From positions 14,219 through 78,218 of the IMG/VR virus record IMGVR_UViG_2773857766_000003: a stretch of DNA of 64,000 bases, one strand, 5' to 3'. The DNA comes from a virus (Duplodnaviria; Caudoviricetes). Position numbers and translations under genes: made by a program. Position 1 is the first letter of the stretch. Every line of letters begins with the position of its first letter. This document shows positions 14,101 to 54,387 of this stretch, in pieces. The notes beneath the pieces were generated by a model that worked only from the letters and a program-made list of their open reading frames with translations, did not search any database and had not been told where the DNA came from.

Positions 14101-17100
14101 CAGCCTTGACGTACAGCGGATAGGTGGCACCGCCGGCCGCGTAGTGCTCGGCAAACGCAGGGTCTGGCGACAGGAAGATAAGGGCCCCGGGCCGGGACGG
14201 GGCCGCGTTCTCGTTGGGCGATCCGCGGTACATCACGAGCGGGCGGCCACCCGGCTTGCCGCTCTCCGTCACCTTGCTGTCCCCGAACCACTTCTTGAAC
14301 GCCTCGCTCTCGGGCGCGGCTGCGCGGCTGAACATGGGGCGCTGCCCGCTCAGGGCGTCGTCCGCATCCTCGCCCAGCTCGAAGTTCTCGGCGCTGGCCT
14401 CCATCCGGGCGGATACCTCGCGGCGCTCGCGCTCGGCGCGCGCGTCGGCATCAGCCTTCGCGTCGGCTTTCGCCCGGGCCTGGGCGGACTCCTGCTGCGC
14501 GTCCTCGCGCGCTGTGACTTCCCGTGGGGTGTAGCTGGAAAGTTCGAGGTCTGGCGCTACTGCGCCACGGCCGTCTTCTGCAGCTCCGCGATCGCCTTGC
14601 CCATCCGGCTGTCCGCGGGGATCTTGGGCATCTTGCCCTTCGCCGCGTCCGCCATCTTCATCAGGGCGCGGCCCTGCTCGATCTGGTTCCGGTCGCCGTG
14701 CTTGCTGCCCTGGCTCATCAGCACCGCGGCCAGCAGGGTCGCGGCCAGGGGCTCCTCGCTCGCCTTGCGGGGCTGCGGGTGCGGATTGTCCGGAAGGTTG
14801 GGGGCTTGCTGCATTGGTGGTCTGGGTGGTTGGTTGGCCGCTCAACGCGGAAAGGATGGCGTCAGGGCCGACCTGCTCGCCGAACATATCACCGCCCGCG
14901 CGCGTCGCCAAGGCCGCGGCCATGTATTCGCGCAGGGAGTCGGCCAGCCGGTCCCGGCCCACGGCCCGCGTCAGGTACTGGCCGGAATAGAGCATGCGCA
15001 GCACGCCCACGGTCATGGGGTCGGGCACGTCGCCCGTCACCATGTCCACCTGGTTGATCGCGTCGTAGAGGGATGCGCGCTCGCGCCGCGCCTTCTGCAC
15101 CAGCCGGATGGCCTGAAGCAGGTTGCCCGTCACGTCCACCTGTGGGTTCACGGCGCCAGCGGCAGCCGCCTGGCGCAGATTCGCCCACTCGCCCGCCACG
15201 TCCTTCAGTGCCTCGCCGATGGCGCGGATGTCGTTGTCCGTGCTGCCGAACATGGATTCGACCAGATCGCCATCGCTGTAGGCCCTGTGCACGAGGGCAG
15301 CCTGCAGCCGCACCACGCCTGCGGGCGAGAGCGCGCCGCCGGCATCGAGCATGCCGGCCACGTCCTGGCCCTCGGCCTGCAGCTTGCCGACGAACGCCCG
15401 TGCGAAATCGCGGTTCGCGGCGCCGGCCAGGTCGCCCGCCTCGAGCACGTCGAGCACGCCGGTATCCAGCAGCGCGGCGTCCGTGGCGGCCTGCTCGGCG
15501 GCCGACAGCCCCAGGGCCTGGCTCTGGCTCTTGGCGCCCATGTTGGCCTGGTTGTCGCGCTCCGAGTAGAGGCGCACCAGCATGGGCGCGCGCATGCCGG
15601 CGATCACCTGCGGGTCGATGCCGTGCATGGCGCTGTCGGCCATCAGCTCCTGCCGGTAGCTGTCGGCCGTGCCGCGCTCGTATGCCGCGCGCAGCCCCGC
15701 GGTGCGCCCGTTGTTCAGCGCCTTCACCGTTCCCGGGTGTGCAGCGTCGAAGAGCGGGTTCACCCCGCCGTCGGCGAAGTTGGACGGCTGCACGTCGCCG
15801 GCTTCCATGACCGCGTACTGGAACGGCACGCGCTGGCCGTCGCTCATCACCGCCGTGTCGCCCCGGCCGATCGCGTGCGCGGCGTGCACCTGGTCGCCCA
15901 CGGCGAACACCATGGGCGCACCCGTCTCGGGGCTGCGCGACGGACCCAGGCGCATGTAGTCGGGGCTCTGGGCCATGCCCTGCATCTGCACCACGCTGGC
16001 GGGTCGGGCCCGGTCGCGGTTCTGGATCTCGGGGGTAGCCGCGCCCACGGCGCCAGTGCCCTCGGGGTTCGTGCCGGCGCGCTTCGTCTTCACGGCGGCC
16101 CACTCGTTCTGCAGGCGATCCCACGCGGGCGAGCCCCGGCGCAGCCGCGCCACGTTCTCGCCGCGTTCGGCCACGAACTGCGGCCAGGTCTTGGCGCGAA
16201 CTGCGCCAGGATCGAAGGCGTCCACCGCCGGCGCGGCGGCAGTCGATCGGGCACTTTCGGCAGCAGGCGCATACCCCGACCGGTCCCGGCTGCGCGCACG
16301 CGGCGCCCCGCGTTCCTGGATGAGCGCTTCCATGCTGCTGTTGTCCGCGCCCCAGTCCTCGGCCCGCTCCACGGGCTTGGGCAGGGGCGAGCGCTCGCGA
16401 GCCCCGCGAAAGCCGAAGTAGGCGTCCGCCACGCGGCGCACGGCCTGGCGCTCGCCGTCATCCAGCCCCGGCTCGCCGATCTTCTCCAGCGCGCCATCGA
16501 GCCGGCCCACGATCTGCACCGTGTTGCCCACGTCCTCGTCCAGCAGGTTCTGCAGGGCGTCGCGGATGCGCCGGGTGCGCAGCTGGGCGTCCACGCGGTG
16601 GATCGCCTCGCCGTCGATCTGCGCGGGCGCCGCCGCGGGCTGTTGCGTCTCGGTCGCCACGTTCAGCTCGAGCCAGGCGTCTTCCAACTGATCGCGCAGC
16701 TGCTGCACGTCGCCGGCCTGGGTGTAGGCCGAGCCAGCGCGCACGCGGTCCTGCAGCTCGCCCAGCGGGTCGGCTACCGGGCGGCGGTAGGCGCGCTCGA
16801 ATTCCTGGCGTTCCTGTGGGGTCAGCCGATCCGGGGCGGTCGGAGCCGCAGCAGCGCCCGGCGCAGCACCAGCAGCCTCGGCCGGCGCGGCCTGCGCAGT
16901 GGCCACCAGCTCGGCGGCCTCGCGCTCCACGAAACGTTGCACATGGGCCGGCATACCGCCGCCCTCCAGTCGGGCCAGCAGCTCCACCGCGTTGCGCCGC
17001 GTGTCGCCGCTCGATCGCTGGGCTACAGCCCGCAGCTCCTGCTGCAGCTGGCTGCCATCCTGGGAAGCTCCCGCTGCGCTGGCATCTCCGGGCTGGGCTG

Positions 17101-23425: not shown

Positions 23426-23440
23426 TGGCAGGCTTGGTAC
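23426..23440 (-). promoter_or_regulatory. Late-gene motif copy 2
   Basis: GTACCAAGCCTGCCA, 10 nt before ATG 23415, no SD. Confidence 0.8.
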
Positions 23441-27096: not shown

Positions 27097-29669
27097 AACC
27101 CGCGCAGTTCCTCGGAGGTGGAGCACAGCACCACGGACGTGACGCGTGCGGCGCTCTGGATTTCTACCTGGTGCTCAAGCCAGCGCCCGGTCGGCAGGCG
27201 CTGGGGCTGCAGGTCCGTGAAGGTCGCCGTGTGCTGCAGCACGCCGTCGCCCCACAGGCGCAGCGTGACGGGGTGCGCTTCGTCCTGCTGGCCGTACACC
27301 TTCGCCCACGCGAGCGGCTGCTGGCGCGGCTGCGTGGCGATGCCCGTGCGCCACCGGCCCGCGCGGCCGGCCCCGCCCGTGAAGCACTCCAGGATGTCGG
27401 AGCCCCGAGCCAGGTACATCAGGTCGTTGAGCTTGTCCACCCACACGGCCGAGCCCGAGAGGTCGATGCGGCCCAGCTTCATCCCGTCCTGCATGTTGCA
27501 CGCAAGACAGCCCCCGCCCGCGCCAGCGTAGAACAGGTAGTAAACGCCCTCGTGCTCGGCTGCGAACATGCTGGCCGGCTGCATGGCCTGCCAGTCCTTC
27601 CGCGCGATCAGCTGCCGGGACACCACCTCCACGCCGCGGGCACTCGCCAGGCAGAGCCCGTCCGGAGAGGCGTAGAGCACGCCGCCCTGCACGCCCACCA
27701 CCGACCGCCGCGAGGCGCACGCCTGGTTGCTATCGAGCTTCTGGGCCGACATCGAGGCCGAGTGGGCACCGGTGACGAAGTATGGATTGCCGGCCGTGCC
27801 CACGAACAGGGTCTGGTCGAACACGGCCATGCCGACCACGGGGAATTCTGTCGTGACCTGGTACTCCACCGGCCAGGCATAGGGCACGTAGGGTTCGCAG
27901 AACGCCACCGTGTTGTCGATGAAGCCGGCCATGATCCCGTTGGGCATGCCCACCAGCCCGCGCAGATAGGGGTTCGCGCCCACGCTGGGCTTCAGCTCGC
28001 CGTCGAATTGCCCGTCCATCCGGTACGGCGGCGCGGCCCAGGTGAACTGCGGCTGCAGGCTTTCCAGCTCCTCGCTCGCCTTGTCGTCCAGGAAGGCCGC
28101 CACCGTGATGGGCATCTCTTGCACCAGTTGCCAGGCGGCGGCCGTGTCGCTGGTATTGCTGCGGTACAGCCGCCACTTCGCGATGAAGCGCTCTGCATAG
28201 CTCTCCCCCGTCATCAGGGCCGGCCGTTGAACGGTCACGGTGTCGTTCGCATCCGCCTCCAGCAACTCCGAGAGCGGCGACGGCTCCGACTCTTCACCCC
28301 AGTCGGTCACGAAGGCCACCACGTAGTAGCGCGAGGAAACCACGCGGTCCACCGTTTCGCCGGCCAGCTTCGCCACGCCGCCCAGCTTGTCCACCCAGGT
28401 GCCCACTACGGCCACGTCTTTGGTCAGGGCAGTGAACTGGCTGGCCAGCTGGGTCTGGATGCTCGCCACCAGGGTGGTACACCGCTGCTGGATCTCCACC
28501 AGCCGCGCATTCAGGCTCGCGGCCTGGGTGGATGCCGCGTCGCGGCCAGAGGTGTAGGCCTCCAGCGCAAGGTAGTAGGCCTCCAGGTCCTTGCGGTACT
28601 GCACCCAGGCTGCCGATTCCACGATATCGGTGCTGTCGCCGCCTGTGGACTGGTACTGCGGCACAGACGGTTCCTTCGGCCGCACGGGCGCGGAGGTGGG
28701 CGCGGCCCAGCTCTTCTCCAGCGCGAGCGTCGCGAACTCCTTCACCAGCTTGTCCAGCTCGGTGCGGGCGGCCGCGCACTCGGCGCCTGGGGCGGCGGCC
28801 TTCTCGGCGAGGTCGGCCACCTTGGCGGCCAAGTCGGCGGTCAGCACCGTCTCGCCCGCGCGCTCGCCCGCGGTGGCCGGGAATTCGTGCAGCTGCAGCG
28901 CCTCCACGAGCGCCGCGCGGCGCAGCGGGTAGCTCGCCGGCATGGCGGCCACCGGCACGGCCCAGCCCCCGCTGGTCTGGGTGGCGCCCAGTCGGGTCAT
29001 GTCCATCTCGGTGGCAGCCGCCCGCGCGGTGGTGATGATGGCGTAGAGGTTGCCCGGCGCCGCGCCCCCGCCCACGGCAGGGGATAGAGAGAGCCCGTAG
29101 TTCGACGTGGGTCCGGCGTAGGCCTTGCCCGAGGCGTCCCATCGCACGGCCTCCTGGTTGCCCTCGTGCTTCACGAACGTGGCGAGCAGGTCGTCCAGCA
29201 GCATCTGGGCGAAGTCACCATAGAGCCAGGTTTTCGCCTCCTCGGGCGTGAACTCGTCCACCACCTGCAGCTTCACGATCGGCTTCACTGGCCGCGGCAC
29301 GCCCAGCAGCCGGTCATTCCCGCGGGCGTCCACCACGCGCGGGCGAGCGCTGCCGTCGTCGGTGGTGCAGTAGGTTCGCTCCGTGGCCTCGTCGTTGATC
29401 TGGCCCTTCACGAATGAACGCTCGTCGGTATAGGAGCGGATGGGCGCGGCTGGATCCTTGACCACCTCGCCGTTCGCATTGCGCGCCATGCGGTGCAGCG
29501 TACGCGCGCCGGACACGCAGGCCGAGTGCCGGCGGTCGGCGGCCATGGGCCAGAACTCGCCGCTGGGCAGGAAGAGGTTTTCGTTCACCCGCGCGAAGTC
29601 ACTGCCCAGGGCGCGATCGGAAACGCTGGGGGCTTCGCCGCCGAACGCGGCCAGGCGGTAGATGGTCAT
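27093..29669 (-). CDS. Tail nozzle/stabilisation protein
   Basis: YVVAFVTDWGEESEPSP, FCEPYVPYAWP, beta-propeller-like C-terminus. Confidence 0.78.
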   Translation of the reverse strand: MTIYRLAAFGGEAPSVSDRALGSDFARVNENLFLPSGEFWPMAADRRHSACVSGARTLHRMARNANGEVVKDPAAPIRSYTDERSFVKGQINDEATERTYCTTDDGSARPRVVDARGNDRLLGVPRPVKPIVKLQVVDEFTPEEAKTWLYGDFAQMLLDDLLATFVKHEGNQEAVRWDASGKAYAGPTSNYGLSLSPAVGGGAAPGNLYAIITTARAAATEMDMTRLGATQTSGGWAVPVAAMPASYPLRRAALVEALQLHEFPATAGERAGETVLTADLAAKVADLAEKAAAPGAECAAARTELDKLVKEFATLALEKSWAAPTSAPVRPKEPSVPQYQSTGGDSTDIVESAAWVQYRKDLEAYYLALEAYTSGRDAASTQAASLNARLVEIQQRCTTLVASIQTQLASQFTALTKDVAVVGTWVDKLGGVAKLAGETVDRVVSSRYYVVAFVTDWGEESEPSPLSELLEADANDTVTVQRPALMTGESYAERFIAKWRLYRSNTSDTAAAWQLVQEMPITVAAFLDDKASEELESLQPQFTWAAPPYRMDGQFDGELKPSVGANPYLRGLVGMPNGIMAGFIDNTVAFCEPYVPYAWPVEYQVTTEFPVVGMAVFDQTLFVGTAGNPYFVTGAHSASMSAQKLDSNQACASRRSVVGVQGGVLYASPDGLCLASARGVEVVSRQLIARKDWQAMQPASMFAAEHEGVYYLFYAGAGGGCLACNMQDGMKLGRIDLSGSAVWVDKLNDLMYLARGSDILECFTGGAGRAGRWRTGIATQPRQQPLAWAKVYGQQDEAHPVTLRLWGDGVLQHTATFTDLQPQRLPTGRWLEHQVEIQSAARVTSVVLCSTSEELRGL

Positions 29670-32118: not shown

Positions 32119-33168
32119 TCACTGCTCCTTGATGGGTACGACCAGTTCCACCTCCTTGACGCGGCCGTCGTTGGTGGTCGCCGCGATGGAAATCTGGTAC
32201 TTCGTGCCGCTCTTGCCGCCCGCGTACACCCACACCTTCACGCGTTGGGCCGTGATTGCGTAACTGGGCGGCATGGGCATGGCCGGCATCACCTTGAGCG
32301 CCACGGCCACGATCTCGTCGCCGGGCGGAAACCACTCGGCGAATTCGATGTCGTAGTCCTGCACGTCGGCGGGCTGTTGTGGGGGGCTGGCTCTGAACAT
32401 GCTGGTGCCCTGGTCGGTCACATAGAAGGTGGTCATGGTGGGCGGCACGAGGAACGTGCGCGATTCGGGCGCGGGCTCGTCAAACGGCAACCGCTTGAAC
32501 ACATCGGGGTCGATCTCAATGACCGCTCGCCCGAGCACGGCAACTGGACCACGCGCGCCGACGTGGAAGCGGGCGGTGCCGGCCGCCGCGGCGCGCAGTA
32601 GCACCGCCAGCCGGGCAGAGGTCCGAGTGCGCGTCACGATGAAGGCCTGGGCCCTCGCATCGACAGGCGATCGGACGCGGCGGCGCGCGAACACCGTGCC
32701 GTCCGCAGTGATGCCGGCGAAGGGCGTGGACCGGACCGGGCCACGGCGGACAAGGCGCGTGGCCGGCGAGAGCTTGGCGCGGGCCGTGCCCGAGGCACCA
32801 CCCCGCGCCAGGACGTGTGCGCGCAGTCCAATGCTGGCGCGGGCCTTGGCGCTGACCACGCCACGCACAGGCGGCAGCGTCACCTTGATGACGGCGCGCC
32901 CACGCGCGGCGATCAGCCCATGGACCTCCGCGTGCCCGAGAGCCCCAACGACAGCCGCCCGCGCGATGGCGTCGGCACGGATGTGGGCCTCGACCCGGCC
33001 CAGGCGGCCCGCCAAGCTGGCAGCAGGCTCGCTGTGCACGCGCGCATAGGCAAGCACACGGCCGCCTGCGCGGATACGTGCGTAGCCCCGTGCATCAACG
33101 CGGACGCGAACAACCTGCTCCCCGGCGGGACCGTTGATCGCAAATCCGTTGAACCTTCCGCGGTTCAC
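32119..33168 (-). CDS. Virion structural protein with C-terminal fibre-adaptor-like domain
   Basis: FN..AING start, Ala/Arg-rich repeats, DVQDYDIEFAEW domain. Confidence 0.7.
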   Translation of the reverse strand: MNRGRFNGFAINGPAGEQVVRVRVDARGYARIRAGGRVLAYARVHSEPAASLAGRLGRVEAHIRADAIARAAVVGALGHAEVHGLIAARGRAVIKVTLPPVRGVVSAKARASIGLRAHVLARGGASGTARAKLSPATRLVRRGPVRSTPFAGITADGTVFARRRVRSPVDARAQAFIVTRTRTSARLAVLLRAAAAGTARFHVGARGPVAVLGRAVIEIDPDVFKRLPFDEPAPESRTFLVPPTMTTFYVTDQGTSMFRASPPQQPADVQDYDIEFAEWFPPGDEIVAVALKVMPAMPMPPSYAITAQRVKVWVYAGGKSGTKYQISIAATTNDGRVKEVELVVPIKEQ

Positions 33169-33186
33169 GTCCTGCCGCCCGCGCGG

Positions 33187-33603
33187 TTACATCAGCTGCA
33201 GGGTGAAGTCCCCCGTCAGCGTCTGGCTGTCCACCACGAACACGTCATTGATCTGGAGCGTGCGCGGGCTGGCCAGCGGCTCCGAATACATGAGCGTGGC
33301 AGTGGGATCGTTCAGGGAGTCGCCCTCCAGGATGCCAATGTGCGTCACCGTGACCTGGGCCCCGCTCACCGGCGGGAACTCGGCGCGCACCGCGTTGTAG
33401 GTGCCACCGTTCACGGGCGAGGCAAACGCGCCGGTGGGCACGCGGCGATACCACGATGCGGCAACCTCGGTTCCGGCCGTGAAGGCATCGGTAGGGTCGG
33501 CCGTGAACAGCGCGAAGTACGGGGTGCGGATCGCAGGGAACGCCTGCTGGCGCAGCGTGGCGTTGATGACCGCATTGGCGAGGGAGTTGGAGAAACCGGC
33601 CAT
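33187..33603 (-). CDS. Tail/fibre-associated structural protein
   Basis: YFALFTADP..EV..Y.R, VTHIGI motif; AGGAGG RBS. Confidence 0.75.
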   Translation of the reverse strand: MAGFSNSLANAVINATLRQQAFPAIRTPYFALFTADPTDAFTAGTEVAASWYRRVPTGAFASPVNGGTYNAVRAEFPPVSGAQVTVTHIGILEGDSLNDPTATLMYSEPLASPRTLQINDVFVVDSQTLTGDFTLQLM

Positions 33604-33621
33604 GGAGGCCTCCTGTGGTTT

Positions 33622-33643
33622 CGAGCACTCCAGCGCCCCGGTT
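33622..33643 (-). promoter_or_regulatory. 22-nt leader element with GGA-loop hairpin, copy A
   Basis: AACCGGGGCGCTGGAGTGCTCG, identical to 37003-37024. Confidence 0.8.
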
Positions 33644-33663
33644 ACGAAAATGTGCTGCCAGGA

Positions 33664-33678
33664 TGGCAGGCTTGTCAC
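33664..33678 (-). promoter_or_regulatory. Late-gene motif copy 4
   Basis: GTGACAAGCCTGCCA. Confidence 0.75.
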
Positions 33679-34304
33679 ATGGTCGGCGCCACCTCGTTGG
33701 ACGCCTTGACCTGCACGCCGAGCGCGCCCTGGAACAGCTCCAGATGCGAGGCGGCCAGCGCCTGGTTGCCAGCAAATTCGCCATCCACGGACCAGGCCCG
33801 GAACAGCATGAAGTGGCGCAGCGCATCCAGCCAGCGGGCCGGCACCCATGGCGCGGCGCTCTCGTCCGCCAGATCCACGGCAGCAGGCGCCACCACCGCA
33901 CGCACCTTCACGCCCGCGCGGGCCGGCGGGTATACCAGGTACTCCCGCGGCGTGCGCATGTCGTGCATGAAGTGCTGCACCTCCAGCGCGGGCGTCTGCG
34001 AGCGCCAGGCACCGGCCACGGCGTCCAGCGTCCACAGCGCGGTCTTCGTGATGCGGCGCTGCGCGGTGTTGGCGTTGTTGGTGATGTCGATGAGCGTCAG
34101 CACGTCGGGCGGTAGCTCCTGCTGCCAGCCGGCGGCCAGCACCAGCTCGCGGTCCTGCGCCAGCTGGTCGGGCCGGTACTCGGCGAACGCGCGCTGGGCC
34201 GCATTGAAGAAGTCGAGCAGGTCGGCTCGCGTCCAGCGGACGCTCCCCTTGTCCTGCAGTTCGCGCGCCACGTCGTCCAGCAGCTGCTTTACGTTCAGAG
34301 CCAT
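33675..34304 (-). CDS. Head-tail adaptor-like protein
   Basis: LQD...RW...LL.FFN.AQ; YLVYPP. Confidence 0.72.
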   Translation of the reverse strand: MALNVKQLLDDVARELQDKGSVRWTRADLLDFFNAAQRAFAEYRPDQLAQDRELVLAAGWQQELPPDVLTLIDITNNANTAQRRITKTALWTLDAVAGAWRSQTPALEVQHFMHDMRTPREYLVYPPARAGVKVRAVVAPAAVDLADESAAPWVPARWLDALRHFMLFRAWSVDGEFAGNQALAASHLELFQGALGVQVKASNEVAPTM

Positions 34305-34915
34305 TGCGCCCTCCCCCGCGGCGTGCTCGGCGTGTGCGAGCGCCACACGTCGGTGGTTGCGTCATCGATCGCGGCGCTGAACAGCGCGAGCGCCACGGCG
34401 GCCTGGTCGGGCCGGTAGTAGTCCGTGCCGGCGGTGGCCAGCAGCTCCGCCTTAGCGCCGTCACGGATCGCCTCGTGGTAGAGCCGCGCCACACTGTCGG
34501 GAACGCTGGTGCCGCGCGTGGAGGGGATGAGCGAGGCCCGCACCTGCACGGTGCCGCCAGCCCCGAGCGCGCCGACGGTGAAAGAGGCCAGGTCAGTGGT
34601 CACGAGGTAGGCGCAACCCGCTCGCGCGTGGCGCCAGGGGTCAGCGGGCAAGCTCCCCTCCTTCGCCACCTCCAGGGGCTTGCCGTCCAGCGTGGCCGCC
34701 TCGATGCGGCGCAGCTCGGCGCCCTGGGGCAGCTCGAACGCGTATTCGGCGAAGGGCGTGCCCGACACATCGACCGGCTCCAGCCATTCCTGCCACGCGC
34801 GCGTCTTCCGCAGGAACTGGCGCGCAGCCCGGTTGATGCACAGGTGGATGAGCGGCGCGGGCGCCGTGGGAGCAGCCAGCACCAGCTCGGGCATCCAGTT
34901 GTCCCACGATGCCAT
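34295..34915 (-). CDS. Head-tail adaptor-like protein
   Basis: Position after the capsid genes; AARQFLRKTRAW. Confidence 0.68.
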   Translation of the reverse strand: MASWDNWMPELVLAAPTAPAPLIHLCINRAARQFLRKTRAWQEWLEPVDVSGTPFAEYAFELPQGAELRRIEAATLDGKPLEVAKEGSLPADPWRHARAGCAYLVTTDLASFTVGALGAGGTVQVRASLIPSTRGTSVPDSVARLYHEAIRDGAKAELLATAGTDYYRPDQAAVALALFSAAIDDATTDVWRSHTPSTPRGRAQWL

Positions 34916-34921
34916 GGCGCG

Positions 34922-35293
34922 TCAGCCCTTCACCAGGGAGGCAGCACCCGCCTTGCGCACGCGTCCCGTGGGGGCGGTGTTGTCTTCCTTGGGTAGGCCG
35001 TCGCCGGTGGAGGCCGGCACGTCGTCGTCATCGTCGTCCTGGGCGGCTTGGGCCTTCTTCGCCTCGCGTTCGGCAATGCGCTCCGCGCGCTTGGCGGCCA
35101 CCTGCTGGAATTTCTGCTCGGCGTCGAACTCTTCCTTGGTCTGGAAGCCTTTGATCTGCAGCTCATCGACGTGATCCTCGTCCTGGACCTCGCACGACAG
35201 AGGGGTGCCCTTGAACACGTACGCGGTGCCGTCGTCCGTGCGGACGGTCAGCTCGCCGGTCTTGCGGGCGGGGAGCGCGGTCAAAAGAAGCAT
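34922..35293 (-). CDS. Hypothetical virion-module protein
   Basis: GGAG RBS; YVF..L.CEV.DEDH. Confidence 0.7.
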   Translation of the reverse strand: MLLLTALPARKTGELTVRTDDGTAYVFKGTPLSCEVQDEDHVDELQIKGFQTKEEFDAEQKFQQVAAKRAERIAEREAKKAQAAQDDDDDDVPASTGDGLPKEDNTAPTGRVRKAGAASLVKG

Positions 35294-35310
35294 GGGGTTC
35301 TCCGGAGTTC

Positions 35311-35364
35311 AAAAAGGCCCCGCCGGGCGTGAACCCGACAGGGTGGGAAAGACCCTTGCGGGCC
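35311..35364 (-). terminator. Branched hairpin with U-tract after the capsid genes
   Basis: GGCCC...GGGCC-TTTTT on the minus strand, enclosing two small hairpins. Confidence 0.6.
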
Positions 35365-35371
35365 AGCACAT

Positions 35372-35830
35372 TCAGGCGTTGGCGTACACCAGATCGACCG
35401 CGAGGAGGCCGGCGGGCGTGCCCGTGCCCACGCCGGTAATCTTCAGCAGCACGCGGCGGTCGTAGTCCTTGGGCGCCACCTTCGCGAAAGCAGCGGGCGT
35501 CAGCTGGACGTAGCCACCGGCCGCGCCGGTGTTGTTGTCCACCACCCAGACGGCGCCGCCGTCCTCGGCGGCCGTGCTGAAGTCCGTGCCAGCCGCGTTC
35601 GCGATACCGATGGAAGCGGTGAAGCCGGCGCCCAGGGCGGCCGGAGCGCGCACGTACAGGTGGACGGGCAGCGTGCCGGCGGGCAGCACGCCGATGATGC
35701 CCACGGTGCCGGCCACATGGTCGGCCGCGACCAGCTGCTGACCGCAGCGGGACACGACCAGCTCCGGGCCGCCGGGGGTGATGGCGTTGTCATAGCCCGC
35801 CAGTTGGGGGCTCTTGTTGGCGAAAGGCAT
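35372..35830 (-). CDS. Capsid decoration/cement-like protein
   Basis: Beta-rich 152 aa directly after the MCP; AAGGAG RBS. Confidence 0.7.
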   Translation of the reverse strand: MPFANKSPQLAGYDNAITPGGPELVVSRCGQQLVAADHVAGTVGIIGVLPAGTLPVHLYVRAPAALGAGFTASIGIANAAGTDFSTAAEDGGAVWVVDNNTGAAGGYVQLTPAAFAKVAPKDYDRRVLLKITGVGTGTPAGLLAVDLVYANA

Positions 35831-35865
35831 GTTCGACTCCTTCTATGGTTTCAGGGGGGACCGGA

Positions 35866-36981
35866 TCAGCGGGGGGCTGCAGCGGCATCCACGGCGAACA
35901 GGCCTTGGTCGTGGCTCACGCCGTCCCAGTTGAACGTGGTCTTCTTGAAGCCGAAGATGGAGGACGTGGTGATGACCACCTGGTTCCCGTTGTCGCGGGT
36001 TTCTTCGTGCCAGCCGTAGCGCATGCCGGTGCCCGGGCTGCCAAACGCCAGCACCCCCGCCTGTGCGCCCATGAAGAGAGCGCGCGCGGTGGACACGTTG
36101 CCGCCCGCGCCGTGGTTGTTGTGGCGGATGACGTTGCGATGGCTGTGCAGCACCACGTTGCGGTGCATGCCGAGGGCCGATCGGAACAGCGGAGACTTCG
36201 CGCCGAGCGATGCGGCGGCCGCCTTCTGCAAATCCATCCACGCGCCCGTGGAAGTGTCGTTGCGCAGGTCGTCCTCGTGCCAGGTGTGCATCACCATGAC
36301 GAAGACCTCCTCGCCGTCCACCACGCACGGCTGCAGAACCGGGATGTTGGTGGAGCCGCCGCCCTGAGTGTCGGCACGGGTGCGTGCGTCGCCCACGAGC
36401 TTCAGCGTCATCTTGTCGGTGGCGTCGATGTTGGCCGTGCTGGTGGCGTCGCCTGCGAACAGCTGGTGGTTGACCGTGGGAGCGGTCAGCTTGTTGTTCG
36501 CCCGGCCTTGGTAGCCCAGCGGCAGCAGGAAGTTCTCGTTCACGCCGCGCGAGCCCGAGAGGTAGGAGAACGACAGTTCGTCCTGGAAGCGGCCCCACCA
36601 GCCAGCCTGCTGCTGCTTGGCCCGCATGCGCAGATCGTGCAGCGTGCGCTTGCGCGACATACGGCCGCCGGTGTTCACGCCGGCGCGGGCCTGGTCGATA
36701 TACAGCTCATCGCTGTAGAACTTCTGCGCTTCTTCCTTGCCGGTGAGGGTGTTGTCACCTTCGACCGGCGCCATGCGCAGTTCGGTCAGCAGGTCGTAGG
36801 TGATGAGTTCACCGGCCTCGGATTCCAGTTCCGTGAGGATCTGGATGGGGGTCTTCGCGCCCTGGCCGACGGCCGCGAAACGGCGGCCGAAATAGGACTG
36901 CTGGGACACATCGAGGGCCAAGTCGCCGGAGAAGCGCTTGACGGCACGCGGGCTGTTCACGCCCGTGCTGGTTTTCGCCAT
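35866..36981 (-). CDS. Major capsid protein (N4-gp56/DUF4043-like)
   Basis: GDNTLTGKEE, IDQAR..V..GG.MS.KRT.HDLR, RALFMGAQA, G.KKT.F. Confidence 0.9.
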   Translation of the reverse strand: MAKTSTGVNSPRAVKRFSGDLALDVSQQSYFGRRFAAVGQGAKTPIQILTELESEAGELITYDLLTELRMAPVEGDNTLTGKEEAQKFYSDELYIDQARAGVNTGGRMSRKRTLHDLRMRAKQQQAGWWGRFQDELSFSYLSGSRGVNENFLLPLGYQGRANNKLTAPTVNHQLFAGDATSTANIDATDKMTLKLVGDARTRADTQGGGSTNIPVLQPCVVDGEEVFVMVMHTWHEDDLRNDTSTGAWMDLQKAAAASLGAKSPLFRSALGMHRNVVLHSHRNVIRHNNHGAGGNVSTARALFMGAQAGVLAFGSPGTGMRYGWHEETRDNGNQVVITTSSIFGFKKTTFNWDGVSHDQGLFAVDAAAAPR

Positions 36982-37002
36982 GGAATGCTCCTAGAGAGGA
37001 TG

Positions 37003-37024
37003 CGAGCACTCCAGCGCCCCGGTT
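37003..37024 (-). promoter_or_regulatory. 22-nt leader element with GGA-loop hairpin, copy B (capsid leader)
   Basis: Identical to 33622-33643; 21 nt before the MCP ATG. Confidence 0.8.
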
Positions 37025-37034
37025 GAAAAAAACT

Positions 37035-37238
37035 TCAGGCTTTCACGATGGCAGGCTTGGTACGGGCCGGCACCTTCTTGAAGGAAATTTCCGGCGCCGC
37101 GCACACCACCATGCGCGCGGTCTGGCCGGACTTCTCCACCATCTGGATCACCACGCCCGGCAACTCGAGAACGTCCCCGGTGCGCAGCTCCATGTGGACG
37201 CGGCGCACGGTGTCTTGTGAGGTGTTGGCAGTGGTCAT
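37035..37238 (-). CDS. CsrA/RsmA-fold-like small protein
   Basis: LRTGDVLEL..VVIQMVEKSGQTARMVVCAAPEISF aligns by eye with CsrA [34 protein letters not shown]. Confidence 0.65.
   Translation of the reverse strand: MTTANTSQDTVRRVHMELRTGDVLELPGVVIQMVEKSGQTARMVVCAAPEISFKKVPARTKPAIVKA
37049..37063 (-). promoter_or_regulatory. Late-gene motif copy 5 (capsid)
   Basis: GTACCAAGCCTGCCA in the 3' end of the CsrA-like gene. Confidence 0.8.
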
Positions 37239-38224
37239 CAGCCCCTCAGGTAGCGTTCGCGCTTGTCGGGCGAGAGGCCGGCCAGCGCGCGCTCGTACTC
37301 CAGGCCAGACAGCTTGTCCAGGTCCGAGAACTCGTCGCCGGATGGGTCAGCGTCACCGCCGCCACCGGGCACGTCCGCCAGGTTGGTGACCACGGCGCTG
37401 GCGTCCGGCTTGCGCGGCGCGGGAGCCGCCGTCTTGCCGGTCGCGATGCCATGCAGCGCCACCACGCGTTTGTGGCCTTCCTCGAGGAACCAGCGGTGCG
37501 GCTTCGCGGCGTTCTCCGGGGCGGCGGCCAGCGCTTTCACGAACACATCCAGATCGGCCGCTTTCGCCTGGTCCTTCGCATAGTCCACCAGGCCCAGCTC
37601 CGCCTTCGTCGCGGCGTCTGTGACGAAGGTGTTGATGGCCGACACCCACGCATTCGATTCCGCCTGCTCCTGCATCTCGCGTGCCACCTGCGCCCGGGTT
37701 TTGGCTTCGCGCAGGTCCGCACGCTGTTCCTGCAACTCGTCCAGTTTGGCGTGGTACTCGGACGCATCCACCTCTCCGTTGTCGAACTTCGTGCGCAGGT
37801 CGGTCAGCGCGGCCTTGTTGGCTGCCACCTTGTCATCGTAGTCCGCGGGCAGCTCGGCCTTGTAGGTGGGATGCGGAGCTGGGGCCGGCGCGGGCTTGGC
37901 ACCGGGGACTGCCGCTGCATCTTCAGCTGGCGCGGGCGCTGCAGCAGGCGCGGGCGCATCCGCCGCTGCAGCTGCAGGAGCTGGCGCAGGCGTAGGCGAA
38001 GGGGCTGCAGCCTGGGCAGGTGCGGGCGCGGGCGCGGCAGCGCGGCCCTTCTCGCCTTCGCCCTCGCCCTCGCCGCCCTCTTCGTCATCGTCTAACTCGC
38101 CGCGGCCAATCTCACGCAGTGCAGCGTCGTTGTCCTCGTCGGGGTTGTAGTCGTCGTCTTCCATCGCCGCGCGCTCGGCGTCGGAGAGCAGGCGCAGGCG
38201 ATCGTCGTCCTTGTCCATGGTCAT
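37238..38224 (-). CDS. Scaffolding protein
   Basis: Acidic N-terminus, Ala/Pro linker, coiled coil, upstream of the MCP. Confidence 0.75.
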   Translation of the reverse strand: MTMDKDDDRLRLLSDAERAAMEDDDYNPDEDNDAALREIGRGELDDDEEGGEGEGEGEKGRAAAPAPAPAQAAAPSPTPAPAPAAAAADAPAPAAAPAPAEDAAAVPGAKPAPAPAPHPTYKAELPADYDDKVAANKAALTDLRTKFDNGEVDASEYHAKLDELQEQRADLREAKTRAQVAREMQEQAESNAWVSAINTFVTDAATKAELGLVDYAKDQAKAADLDVFVKALAAAPENAAKPHRWFLEEGHKRVVALHGIATGKTAAPAPRKPDASAVVTNLADVPGGGGDADPSGDEFSDLDKLSGLEYERALAGLSPDKRERYLRG

Positions 38225-38253
38225 GTTTGGCTCCAGATTCGAAGTTGTGTGGG

Positions 38254-38901
38254 TCAGGCTTTGGGAGGTGCACCACAGCCGGCCAGAGGCAGGCGAGCCA
38301 CAAGCAGGCAGAAGATGTGCAGCAGCAGCGATACCGGCACCTCGGCAGCCTTGCCGCTCGCAGAGCGCGCGTCTTCAGAAAGGCGCAGCGCATGGAGCCT
38401 GTCGGCAGTGGTTCCATCGCCCTGGGTCAGGCCGTTGGCGAACTGGGCATGTGCGGCGGCGGACTTGCGCTGGATCTCGCGCTCGATCCAGTCGGCGCCG
38501 GGGTCAAGTACCGGCAGATTGATGGACGGAGCGCCCGACAGCTTGGCCCCCACACCGATCAACGCATAGACCAGCGCCGAATTTGCATCGACGTGGATAG
38601 GCGACTTCTTCGCCGCTTCGGCCTTCGTCGCCTGCCCCTTCTGGTAGGGCATCCACTCGCAGTAGGGGTAGGACGGAACCGGTTGCCCCTCCTGCACCAA
38701 TTCGACACAGCGAAAGCTGTGGACCGCACCGTCGGAGTCGAACACCGACAGATTCACGCGGCCGTCGTCCAGGACGCTCGTGATGATCGCGGCGCAAGGC
38801 TGCTCGCCGGGCTGACGGGTGAAGCTCGTCGGCCCGCGATGCTTCGAGAGATGAAACCAGACGACCCTACCGACGGTAGGCTGGATGATGGGATTGGTCA
38901 T
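38254..38901 (-). CDS. Conserved-looking phage protein (PTVGRVVWF..AAIIT..VNLSVF..WMPYQ)
   Basis: SH3-like motif pattern; follows late motif copy 6. Confidence 0.65.
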   Translation of the reverse strand: MTNPIIQPTVGRVVWFHLSKHRGPTSFTRQPGEQPCAAIITSVLDDGRVNLSVFDSDGAVHSFRCVELVQEGQPVPSYPYCEWMPYQKGQATKAEAAKKSPIHVDANSALVYALIGVGAKLSGAPSINLPVLDPGADWIEREIQRKSAAAHAQFANGLTQGDGTTADRLHALRLSEDARSASGKAAEVPVSLLLHIFCLLVARLPLAGCGAPPKA

Positions 38902-53491: not shown

Positions 53492-54387
53492 GCGTTCGCC
53501 TCCGCGCGGCGTTGCCGCAGGATCGTCATGGCCTCACCGGCCGTGTCGTAGTTGGCTTGGGATTGGTCCACCTGCTTGGCGCGGGTGCTGGTGATCGCCG
53601 CACCGTTGAACCACTGGGTGCGGTAGCCCTCGGCGCGTGTCAGGAGCTGGCCGAAGTCGTGGACCAGGCGCACGACAAATGCCTCGTTCACGGCGTCCAC
53701 GAAGAAGGCAGCCACGGCCGGTGATTCGTCATGCCCGATGCGCTGCACGAACTGCTTCACCTTGGCGTTCACCGCCTGATTGCGCACGGGCTTGGTCTTG
53801 TAGCGTCGCTGGTAGGCCTCGCTGTACGCCGCCCAGGTCTGCCGGCATGCAGCCTGCAGAGCGGTTTCCTTCTCGTCCACCGGCTCGGCCTTGACCTTCG
53901 GCGCGGTCGGCGCAGCCGGCTGCAAGATGGTCAGTTCATTGGTCTGTTCAATGGTCTGTTCTTTGCCCCTAGCCGCATCGGCTACGGGGGGGGTAGCCGA
54001 TTGGGCTACGGGTGGGGTAGCCGGATCGGCTACCGTAGCCGATTGGGCTACCGTAGCTTCTTCGGCTACCGTAGCCGGATGGGCTACCGTAGCCTGTTCG
54101 GCTACGGTTTCTTCAGGGCTGCACAAGGTGTAGCGGCTGGCCTTCGAGTGCCCACCGCTGCCTACCTTTTTCAGCCAGCCGAGCCCCACCAGCGCGGTGG
54201 TGGCGGCGCTGATGTTCGATGGGTGCATGCCGGTGCGCTCGGAAATCTTCGCGCGGGAAGGCCACACGGTGTCCGTGACCTTGTTCCGGAACGAAAAGAG
54301 CGCGATCAGCACACGCGTCTGCTCCAACGTCAGCCGCTTGTCCAGAATCACCTCGATAGGCACCAGGGAGAATTGGCCTTCCGTCAC
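53485..54387 (-). CDS. Replication initiator (O-like, N-terminal HTH)
   Basis: WPSRAKISERTG..L...GWL; internal iterons. Confidence 0.82.
   Translation of the reverse strand: MTEGQFSLVPIEVILDKRLTLEQTRVLIALFSFRNKVTDTVWPSRAKISERTGMHPSNISAATTALVGLGWLKKVGSGGHSKASRYTLCSPEETVAEQATVAHPATVAEEATVAQSATVADPATPPVAQSATPPVADAARGKEQTIEQTNELTILQPAAPTAPKVKAEPVDEKETALQAACRQTWAAYSEAYQRRYKTKPVRNQAVNAKVKQFVQRIGHDESPAVAAFFVDAVNEAFVVRLVHDFGQLLTRAEGYRTQWFNGAAITSTRAKQVDQSQANYDTAGEAMTILRQRRAEANAC
53969..54108. repeat. Replication origin iterons inside the initiator gene
   Basis: Seven palindromic (G)TAGC-N-GGCTAC units; GGCTAC at 53980, 54004, 54028, 54046, 54064, 54082, 54100 (spacing 24,24,18,18,18,18). Confidence 0.85.

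Follow-up and report, generated by a model that had tools for sequence, protein, structure and literature searches.

A conserved leader hairpin beside the CsrA-like gene of Bcep22-like phages is a candidate operator for capsid translation

Introduction

CsrA and its relatives RsmA and RsmE fold into five beta strands and a C-terminal helix and form an interlocked, strand-swapped homodimer. Canonical CsrA needs a GGA motif, its canonical sites present a hexaloop, and Arg44 is an important RNA-contacting residue. Small phage proteins of other kinds are known to act on hairpins of messenger RNAs: Com of phage Mu opens a sequestered ribosome-binding site at a leader hairpin of the mom mRNA, and the coat protein of MS2 covers the start codon of the replicase gene, which is held in a hairpin. 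Here we describe an RNA hairpin (hairpin I) and the adjoining CsrA-like gene, P0001, in a stretch of 64,000 nucleotides (nt) that comprises positions 14,219 to 78,218 of IMG/VR record IMGVR_UViG_2773857766_000003 and is called the window throughout. It makes up most of a 78-kb provirus record with a G+C content of 67% and derives from a prophage in a Comamonadaceae-type bacterium.

Genes for CsrA-like proteins were found by PSI-BLAST in phages Bcep22, BcepIL02, DC1, GP4, Parlo, PEp14 and SopranoGao (Sobrero and Valverde, 2020; PMC7366521), and their occurrence in Bcep22-like phages, mentioned in a preliminary description of the window that was made from its letters alone, is therefore already catalogued. 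The accessible text of that paper further states that Burkholderia hosts lack csrA and calls for loss-of-function tests, and the accessible text of a review (PMC8310193) repeats only the CsrA-like annotation for DC1. Annotated ‘CsrA-like regulator’ genes (BcepIL02 gp49, GP4 gp04, Parlo gp62, PEp14 gp9, that of SJM3, and Itty13 gp22) share with P0001 the position between scaffold-like and capsid genes as well as the leader box described below; however, their records and the accessible parts of the papers name the gene only, with no target, operator or leader structure. In Escherichia coli, CsrA activates translation of ymdA by destabilising a structure that sequesters the Shine-Dalgarno (SD) sequence, according to the accessible text of Renda et al. 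(2020; PMC7492729). There, as predicted for the capsid leader of the window, the SD is hidden in the default fold, and a CsrA-type protein bound upstream would shift the leader towards its open form. At ymdA, binding destabilises the inhibitory hairpin directly; the phage protein would do otherwise and stabilise a rival hairpin, one strand of which is also needed for the inhibitory helix.

Compared with the CsrA/RsmA/RsmE family (PF02599; RsmE-RNA complex 2jpp, CsrA 1y00), P0001 is likewise a small all-beta protein (about 60-70 residues) with remote, significant profile similarity, and its candidate target is likewise a short stem-loop in an mRNA leader with GGA in the loop and a second GGA in the SD. 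It differs in falling below the Pfam threshold, in lacking the C-terminal helix and in carrying lysine for Arg44. The conserved part of the RNA is a GCGC/GUGC stem with an NGA loop of 4-5 nt rather than GGA, and the regulator is phage-borne, lies in cis beside its presumed target and occurs in hosts that, where examined, have no Csr system.

Full-text literature searches returned no published description of the hairpin, of a switch in the capsid leader or of any target of a phage CsrA-like protein, and as far as these searches reach both the operator-like hairpin and the switch are unpublished. Phage and plasmid homologues of CsrA have been catalogued for years without a known target; a conserved candidate operator now adjoins the gene. 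Our favoured reading, to which we assign a probability of roughly 0.55, is that hairpin I serves as operator for the phage’s own CsrA-like protein and that this protein probably activates translation of the capsid gene.

Results

A hairpin repeated in two virion leaders

The preliminary description had drawn attention to a 22-mer, AACCGGGGCGCTGGAGTGCTCG, said to occur twice and each time between a late motif and the SD. Both statements were borne out on the minus strand (Table 1), where the SD of each leader is strong (AGGAG or AGGAGG) and followed by ATG. Copy A lies between the stop codon of P0001 and the AGGAG/ATG of the capsid gene, copy B between an adaptor-like gene and the AGGAGG/ATG of a gene for a protein of 138 residues. 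No third copy was found in the window at up to three mismatches, 100 dinucleotide-preserving shuffles gave 0 matches, and the entire 78-kb provirus record contains the two copies only. The ‘second GGA’ remarked upon in each SD is simply the SD itself. Folded in isolation, the 16-nt hairpin GGGCGC-UGGA-GUGCUC has an energy of −6.3 kcal/mol.

The two copies obtained 29.6 and 29.3 bits with a covariance model of the hairpin, whose training set contained near-identical relatives; the next match in the window, within a coding region, reached 17 bits. This box-like GCGCTGGAGGTGC (33970-33996, minus strand; E=0.035), also found in the four closest relatives, was taken as a chance match since it lies inside the adaptor-like gene without outer pairing. 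The second-best matches in GP4 (56497) and BcepIL02 (11400), inside coding regions and also devoid of outer pairing, were judged in the same way. A search of Rfam gave 0 matches at E≤1 for 33000-38500 on both strands.

Relatives were collected by searching with the capsid protein, which yielded 75 loci from IMG/VR (56-98% identity) and 15 loci from genome contigs of Acidovorax, Comamonas, Delftia, Roseateles, Mitsuaria, Rubrivivax, Undibacterium and metagenome-assembled genomes. A box of the form GCGC-(A/U)NGA(N)-GUGC stands 34-52 nt before the capsid start in every locus whose upstream sequence reaches 80 nt (69 of 69 from IMG/VR, 12 of 12 from genome contigs). The box is shared by seven of seven cultured phages that are positive for the CsrA-like gene (BcepIL02, GP4, POI1126, Parlo, PEp14, SJM3 and Itty13), six of which (all but Itty13) have capsid proteins only 42-46% identical to that of the window; in the cultured relatives the box lies about 10-18 nt downstream of a sigma70-like −10 element. 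More than 80 related phages and prophages carry the candidate operator directly beside the CsrA-like gene, and the hairpin core is constant in phages of alpha-, beta- and gamma-proteobacteria. Phage PTXU04 was not among the relatives that one search returned.

Covariation of the hairpin across related phages, which the preliminary description had proposed as a check, was found in the outer pairs of 40 distinct hairpins (score 0.199 against 0.128 after shuffling; reached by 0 of 500). Pair 6-22 was GC in 31 hairpins, CG in 4, AU in 3 and unpaired in 2; pair 7-21 was GU in 14, AU in 12, UG in 3, CG and GC in one each and unpaired in 9; pair 8-20 was GC in 39 and AU in one. The three inner pairs C-G, G-U and C-G were invariant in all 40. 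As the invariant G-U pair and the G-U/A-U exchanges render the element strand-specific, it is to be regarded as RNA of the coding strand and not as DNA. We therefore consider it very improbable that the 22-mer belongs to a late promoter or forms the operator of a DNA-binding late activator. It does lie 25-29 bp downstream of the late motif, and a promoter scan of 33400-38400 returned 0 sigma70-like promoters; but the invariant G-U and the G-U/A-U/G-C exchanges are meaningful only in sense-strand RNA, the box of the cultured relatives should be transcribed in view of its place after the −10 element, and the box covaries with the ribosome-binding region, as described in the next section.

The GGA, which had been put forward as the feature common to the loops, did not survive the comparison, as AUGA, AUGAA, AUGAC, AAGA, AAGAC or AGAAG form the loop in 12 of 40 aligned capsid-leader sequences. 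What is nearly invariant is the GCGC/GUGC stem; the loop reads A/U-N-G-A(-N), with GGA frequent and not required. Since loops with UGA and AGA occur, GGA is not the conserved feature and the element is not a canonical CsrA GGA site.

The distribution of loop types is recorded here as a separate observation. Loops without GGA (AAGAC or AUGAC) are found in the capsid leaders of Parlo (L081), PEp14 (L082), SJM3 (L083) and Itty13 (L104), whose hosts presumably have their own CsrA/RsmA. GGA loops prevail in phages of Burkholderiales (L003, L004 and Comamonadaceae prophages), an order whose genomes, where tested, had no host csrA. Non-GGA loops may thus insulate the leader from the host regulator. 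The rule is not clean: a second box in Parlo has the loop UGGAC, and POI1126, a phage of Ochrobactrum, has AUGAC.

An alternative helix over the capsid start

The hairpin had been presented as the fold of both leaders. It stands as a conserved, covarying RNA element, but in the capsid leader it is not the predicted equilibrium fold. Both the minimum free energy (MFE) and the centroid structures of copy A lack hairpin I, and UGGAGUGCUC (37013-37004) pairs instead with GAGCAUUCCA (36990-36981). The resulting helix II comprises 10 bp with one G-U, covers most of the SD and extends to the A of the capsid AUG. Constrained folds of this leader gave −20.1 kcal/mol with helix II and −13.3 kcal/mol with hairpin I, a difference of 6.8 kcal/mol, and the RNAduplex energy of helix II (−17.4 kcal/mol) was reached by 0 of 300 shuffles.

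Helix II pairing was better than 95% of shuffled partners in 28 of 35 unique capsid leaders, with a mean z of −3.0. Because shuffling destroys the SD, other GGAG-N4-10-ATG sites with open frames from the same locus were added as background; the cognate ribosome-binding region beat every other such site of its locus in 24 of 35 leaders, compared with 21 of 165 pooled background sites. When the partners of 22 distinct boxes were exchanged, cognate pairing amounted to −12.0 kcal/mol against −9.07 ± 0.47 kcal/mol for swapped partners, and none of 5000 permutations reached the cognate value. The last loop base takes part in helix II as A-U in 21 leaders, C-G in 4, G-C and U-A in 2 each and G-U in one, and is unpaired in 5, counts that are biased towards pairing as the register was set by the optimiser. 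Compensatory versions of the helix are seen in GP4 (GGAGUGUG / CACACUCC), BcepIL02 (GGAUGUGC / GCACAUCC) and POI1126 (AUGACGUG / CACGUCAU), and the same arrangement with different letters in a further relative, L033 (GGAGGUGCUC / GGAGUAUCUCC). The partner strand of PEp14 and SJM3 lies just upstream of the SD and not on it. Single-sequence folds of 76-80 nt were no more stable than those of shuffled sequences (z = −0.71 and −0.29).

The box in other leaders

The leader of copy B behaves differently. Hairpin I is part of its MFE structure with a mean pair probability of 0.63, and according to RNAalifold the SD pairs with codons 3-4 (GGUUUC) and not with the box. The identical box is found in the tail leader of 26 of 52 IMG/VR relatives with enough downstream sequence, and within the close clade (at least 78% capsid identity) GGGGCGCTGGAGTGCTCG is unchanged in the capsid and tail-operon leaders while the flanks drift.

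A second box, GCGCAUGAGUGC, occurs at the start of the scaffold-like gene in 13 of 58 IMG/VR loci, the more distant ones (including L034, L037, L048, L051, L053, L055, L059 and L067), at about −1100 to −1900 from the capsid start. The AUG lies in the loop (AUGA) of the core hairpin, the GCGC ahead of it is conserved, the remaining spacer is variable and outer stems are missing. This arrangement recalls the MS2 operator, with the difference that the folds of the MS2 coat protein and of Mu Com are unrelated to that of CsrA and the resemblance is one of logic only. The window has no such box at its own scaffold start (38224). The second box of Parlo has its own promoter-like −10 element and precedes another gene, whose first residues resemble, by eye, those of an endolysin; that of POI1126 precedes a homologue of the window gene starting near 29669. 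That a single recognised core is used in such different settings speaks for a factor acting in trans.

These data bear on whether a protein is needed at all. The RNA might act alone as a kinetic or thermodynamic switch, with hairpin I folding first during transcription and permitting a burst of translation before helix II closes the site; in a variant, it would be an mRNA-stability or thermosensing device whose sequence is kept only for its two pairings and the SD. Both folds are supported by the covariation and duplex tests, the loop and 3’ arm are complementary to the constrained SD, and the binding of the hairpin by a protein is itself a prediction. Yet the GCGC of the 5’ arm and the G-U pair are invariant across three proteobacterial classes, though any complementary arm would suffice, and a capsid-specific switch does not explain why the 12-nt core recurs in tail leaders without helix II and at scaffold starts without outer stems. 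We regard a protein-free device as unlikely.

The CsrA-like protein

The preliminary description had aligned the 67-residue protein by eye to the strand pattern of CsrA. Homology was recovered by transitive profile comparisons, and was not seen as a direct Pfam match or in fold searches with the monomer. P0001 matches PHROG 8397, ‘CsrA-like regulator’, with E=4.6e-8 over residues 14-61. The profile of its near clade (A1) aligns with that of a syntenic distant clade (A5) in hhalign with 98.1% probability (E=1.1e-13, 49 columns), and the A5 profile matches seven solved structures at E≤0.01, every one of them a chain of CsrA or RsmE (best E=1.5e-5). The top seven matches of a further profile, A2, are CsrA/RsmE as well (E=3e-5 to 3.4e-4). 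Pfam CsrA (PF02599) is matched by 17 of 35 family members, with a best E of 8.2e-8, the distant homologues being more CsrA-like; the clade of the window’s protein, for which a search of a large protein collection gave only 14 close homologues, is more divergent and is extended at the N-terminus by RR. As had been noted, P0001 lacks the HREE motif, and in the profile alignment V-H-R-E of CsrA corresponds to F-K-K-V. Lys55 of P0001, which takes the place of CsrA Arg44, is invariant across the clade of the window (15 close homologues) and is K or R in most distant homologues.

An AlphaFold2 monomer model of P0001 (mean predicted local distance difference test score, pLDDT, 79.8) has strands at 12-18, 23-26, 29-32, 41-47 and 54-56 in the expected order. 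Foldseek comparison of this model with the Protein Data Bank gave no match at E≤0.001 (top match YqeH GTPase, E=0.4), and VIA-align, run against 48,161 chains, did not retrieve CsrA (best Z 3.6). CsrA being a strand-swapped dimer and only the monomer having been modelled, the fold searches were not counted against membership of the family. Judged by its profiles, P0001 is a divergent protein of the CsrA superfamily and not a canonical CsrA, and its gene adds a new, divergent member to a group of phage CsrA-like genes that is already annotated. The ATG of the gene and the stop codon of the scaffold-like gene overlap (TGATG), so that synthesis of P0001 is probably translationally coupled to that of the scaffold-like protein.

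Co-occurrence of gene and box, and the host Csr system

In 67 of 67 IMG/VR loci whose upstream sequence reaches 420 nt, and in 11 of 11 loci from genome contigs, a CsrA-like open reading frame follows the scaffold-like gene; the hidden Markov model used to find these frames contains many of the sequences counted. Gene and hairpin were found together in every relative examined, with no exception, and the one capsid relative examined that has no CsrA-like gene, Paracoccus phage KLEP18-1, is also without the box. The scaffold-like gene keeps its place between the portal and CsrA-like genes in the cultured relatives.

Four of five host genomes with such prophages gave no match to PF02599 at E≤0.01, and the single match in the fifth lies in the prophage itself. 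As a control, the same search detects the family in E. coli, Bacillus subtilis and Thermotoga maritima. With no PF02599 match of their own in the five hosts, these phages do not plug into a host Csr system.

This is relevant to a further explanation, that some other trans factor (a host ribonuclease for which it would be a processing or stabilising site, another host RNA-binding protein or another conserved phage protein) reads the hairpin and that the CsrA-like gene is a mere syntenic neighbour with, for instance, host mRNAs as targets. Loops without GGA are unlike canonical CsrA specificity, the ends of some RNA-library contigs at the hairpins (see below) are a weak hint in the same direction, and published discussion, in the accessible text of PMC11879866 and PMC7366521, presumes that phage CsrA homologues manipulate the host. 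Against this, the core is constant in hosts of three proteobacterial classes, which a phage-borne partner fits better; the beta-proteobacteria examined as hosts lack a Csr system that a phage could manipulate; and the CsrA-like protein carries the sole RNA-binding annotation among the module genes scanned. Such a factor appears to us slightly less probable even than the protein-free device considered above.

Discussion

How the protein would act

We infer both the binding of P0001 to hairpin I and the direction of regulation. The core recurs with helix II, without helix II and around a start codon, and phages of three proteobacterial classes have kept it, as would be expected if a trans factor encoded by the phage recognised the sequence; the adjacent CsrA-fold protein is the obvious candidate. 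According to the model, hairpin I would operate in the 5’ leaders of late virion messages in a large group of Bcep22-like phages and prophages, and the CsrA-like protein, encoded immediately upstream, would be made in step with the scaffold-like protein. By default, helix II would close the SD and AUG of the capsid leader and block ribosome binding. Once clamped on hairpin I, the protein would mask those bases of the loop from which helix II could start to pair, the ribosome-binding site would stay open, and capsid translation would be activated, which would make capsid synthesis dependent on prior expression of the scaffold and CsrA-like genes. The tail-fibre leader would present hairpin I alone, beside a separate helix that contains the SD.

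Activation is favoured because the capsid ribosome-binding region is predicted to be closed and capsid protein is needed in bulk. Given binding, we hold activation to be the likelier direction, and repression, by bridging of the loop GGA and the SD GGA (18-21 nt apart), to be possible.

A number of results weigh against this interpretation. On the RNA side, helix II is not universal, with 7 of 35 capsid leaders pairing no better than shuffles, and it is missing from the tail-leader copy B; in the swap test the cognate partner was the single best one for only 5 of 22 boxes. RNAalifold on 25 full capsid leaders recovered only the 4-bp inner hairpin, a limitation that stems from the varying register of the MAFFT alignment around the ribosome-binding region and for which the register-free duplex tests were used. 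Some of the sequence conservation could follow from the dual pairing constraint alone. Loops may contain UGA or AGA instead of GGA, and within one phage the scaffold-start box has AUGA where the capsid box has AGGA(N). On the protein side, P0001 alone had no Pfam match, to PF02599 or any other family, at E≤1; the near-clade profile alone found no CsrA among solved structures at E≤10; Arg44 of CsrA aligns with a lysine; and the monomer model has no C-terminal helix. As to the connection between the two, the co-occurrence of gene and box is syntenic and could reflect shared descent rather than function, and loop type and protein clade change together, so that no independent protein-RNA covariation can be claimed.

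A wider scheme is possible but doubtful as a whole, namely that one hairpin has opposite outcomes depending on its location, with a CsrA-fold protein re-specified from GGA to GCGC-ANGA-GUGC as part of a phage-owned circuit for assembly stoichiometry in hosts without Csr. Taken together, and with the same reservation for every part, the protein might lock hairpin I, block the loop-initiated invasion by helix II and turn on capsid translation; in the lineages with AUG in the loop, it might repress the scaffold gene and, as the two are translationally coupled, limit its own production; in the clade of the window it might additionally gate the tail-fibre operon; and non-GGA loops in phages of hosts with CsrA/RsmA might be insulation from the host regulator.

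The two-state capsid leader gives a clear prediction on the direction of regulation, and the function of the gene is directly testable. If the favoured reading is true, a CsrA-fold protein with altered RNA specificity would be a dedicated regulator of virion protein synthesis, and the pair would provide a compact orthogonal protein-RNA switch for hosts without a Csr system.

Genes, transcripts and minor features of the window

The features of the locus are collected in Table 1. The terminator-like hairpin behind the gene that comes after the capsid gene is the likely end of the capsid transcript and suggests a two-gene capsid message.

Table 1. Positions of the leader elements and neighbouring genes in the window
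Feature	Position	Strand	Basis or remark
22-mer copy A, capsid leader	37003..37024	minus	hairpin I: GGGCGC 37019-37014, loop UGGA 37013-37010, GUGCUC 37009-37004
22-mer copy B, virion/tail-fibre operon leader	33622..33643	minus	hairpin I 33638-33623, loop UGGA 33632-33629
Capsid SD AGGAG (36992-36988) and bases to A of capsid AUG	36981..36992	minus	
SD AGGAGG and AUG of 138-residue gene	33601..33613	minus	
Late motif CCGTACCAAGCCTGCCATC	37047..37065	minus	upstream of copy A, inside 3’ end of CsrA-like gene
Late-motif core 13-mer CAAGCCTGCCATC	37047-37059	minus	upstream of copy A
Late-motif core 13-mer, second occurrence	33662..33674	minus	upstream of copy B
CsrA-like gene P0001, 67 residues	37035..37238	minus	open reading frame and translation; PHROG 8397 match
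Major capsid protein gene, 371 residues	35866..36981	minus	Pfam PF13252 E=1.9e-55; PHROG 334 E=1.5e-110
Capsid gene start codon	36981-36979	minus	
Scaffold-like gene, 328 residues	37238..38224	minus	PHROG 8246 E=3.4e-90; upstream of P0001, overlapping its start
SU10-adaptor-like gene	33675-34307		gene upstream of copy B
138-residue virion protein gene	33187..33603	minus	PHROG 240 ‘head protein’ E=2.6e-25; leads the operon after copy B
138-residue virion gene start codon	33603-33601	minus	
349-residue gene		minus	next after 138-residue gene, operon behind copy B
Tail-fibre-like gene, 669 residues	30108-32117	minus	PHROG 6427/4492 tail fibre; after 349-residue gene
Terminator-like strong hairpin and T-run	35318..35343	minus	3’ of 152-residue gene that comes after capsid gene

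The late motif CCGTRCCAAGCCTGCCAKC occurs eight to nine times on the minus strand (18430, 23436, 29691, 33674, 37059, 38948, 44731, 47058 and, weaker, 50218), and 11 matches at up to two mismatches compare with 3.2 expected. At 23436, 29691, 44731 and 47058 an ATG follows 8-9 nt downstream without a Shine-Dalgarno sequence. Inside the CsrA-like gene the motif is read in different frames (..RTKPAIVKA* here, ..RPVPSLPS* in other relatives), which indicates that the nucleotides and not the peptide are conserved. A dyad form, GTGCCAAG-N3-TGGCA, is seen in distant relatives. Possible roles of the motif are those of a promoter, of an activator site and of a signal for starts that are leaderless or have a short leader. 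Neither it nor the 22-mer could be read convincingly by eye as a sigma54 or sigma70 promoter, in line with the promoter scan. In cultured relatives the box directly follows TTGCAA-N17-TATAAT-like promoters, and the clade of the window seems to have swapped the promoter type and retained the leader hairpin. Just upstream of the copy B 22-mer, CUGCCA of the late motif pairs with a downstream UGGCAG, with UUUU a few bases on, forming a small terminator-like hairpin (33654-33672, minus strand) that has no equivalent at copy A.

RNA-sequencing libraries from three studies include the region as contigs, which is compatible with transcription and proves nothing; such contigs cannot reveal transcript ends or levels, and uncovered parts were given no interpretation. 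Two sets (X2 and X3; 13-19 kb) cover the whole region, for which DNA carry-over or an induced prophage are possible sources, and two others (X8 and X11) are fragmentary. In both studies behind the fragmentary sets there are contigs that break off at 33638, where hairpin I of copy B begins, and one contig of X11 breaks off at 37013, where the loop of copy A begins; no loose ends were reported at either position. These contig ends are a weak hint of RNA ends, or of a drop in coverage at structure.

Two repeats were seen elsewhere in the window. About 40 tandem copies of a G+C-rich 12-nt unit, CACCGCCNGTGC as read on the plus strand, extend over 2066-2578 and presumably encode a glycine-rich repeat of a fibre or other structural protein. 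At 54006-54113, four to six repeats of 18 nt around the palindrome GGCTACCGTAGCC resemble iterons or operators.

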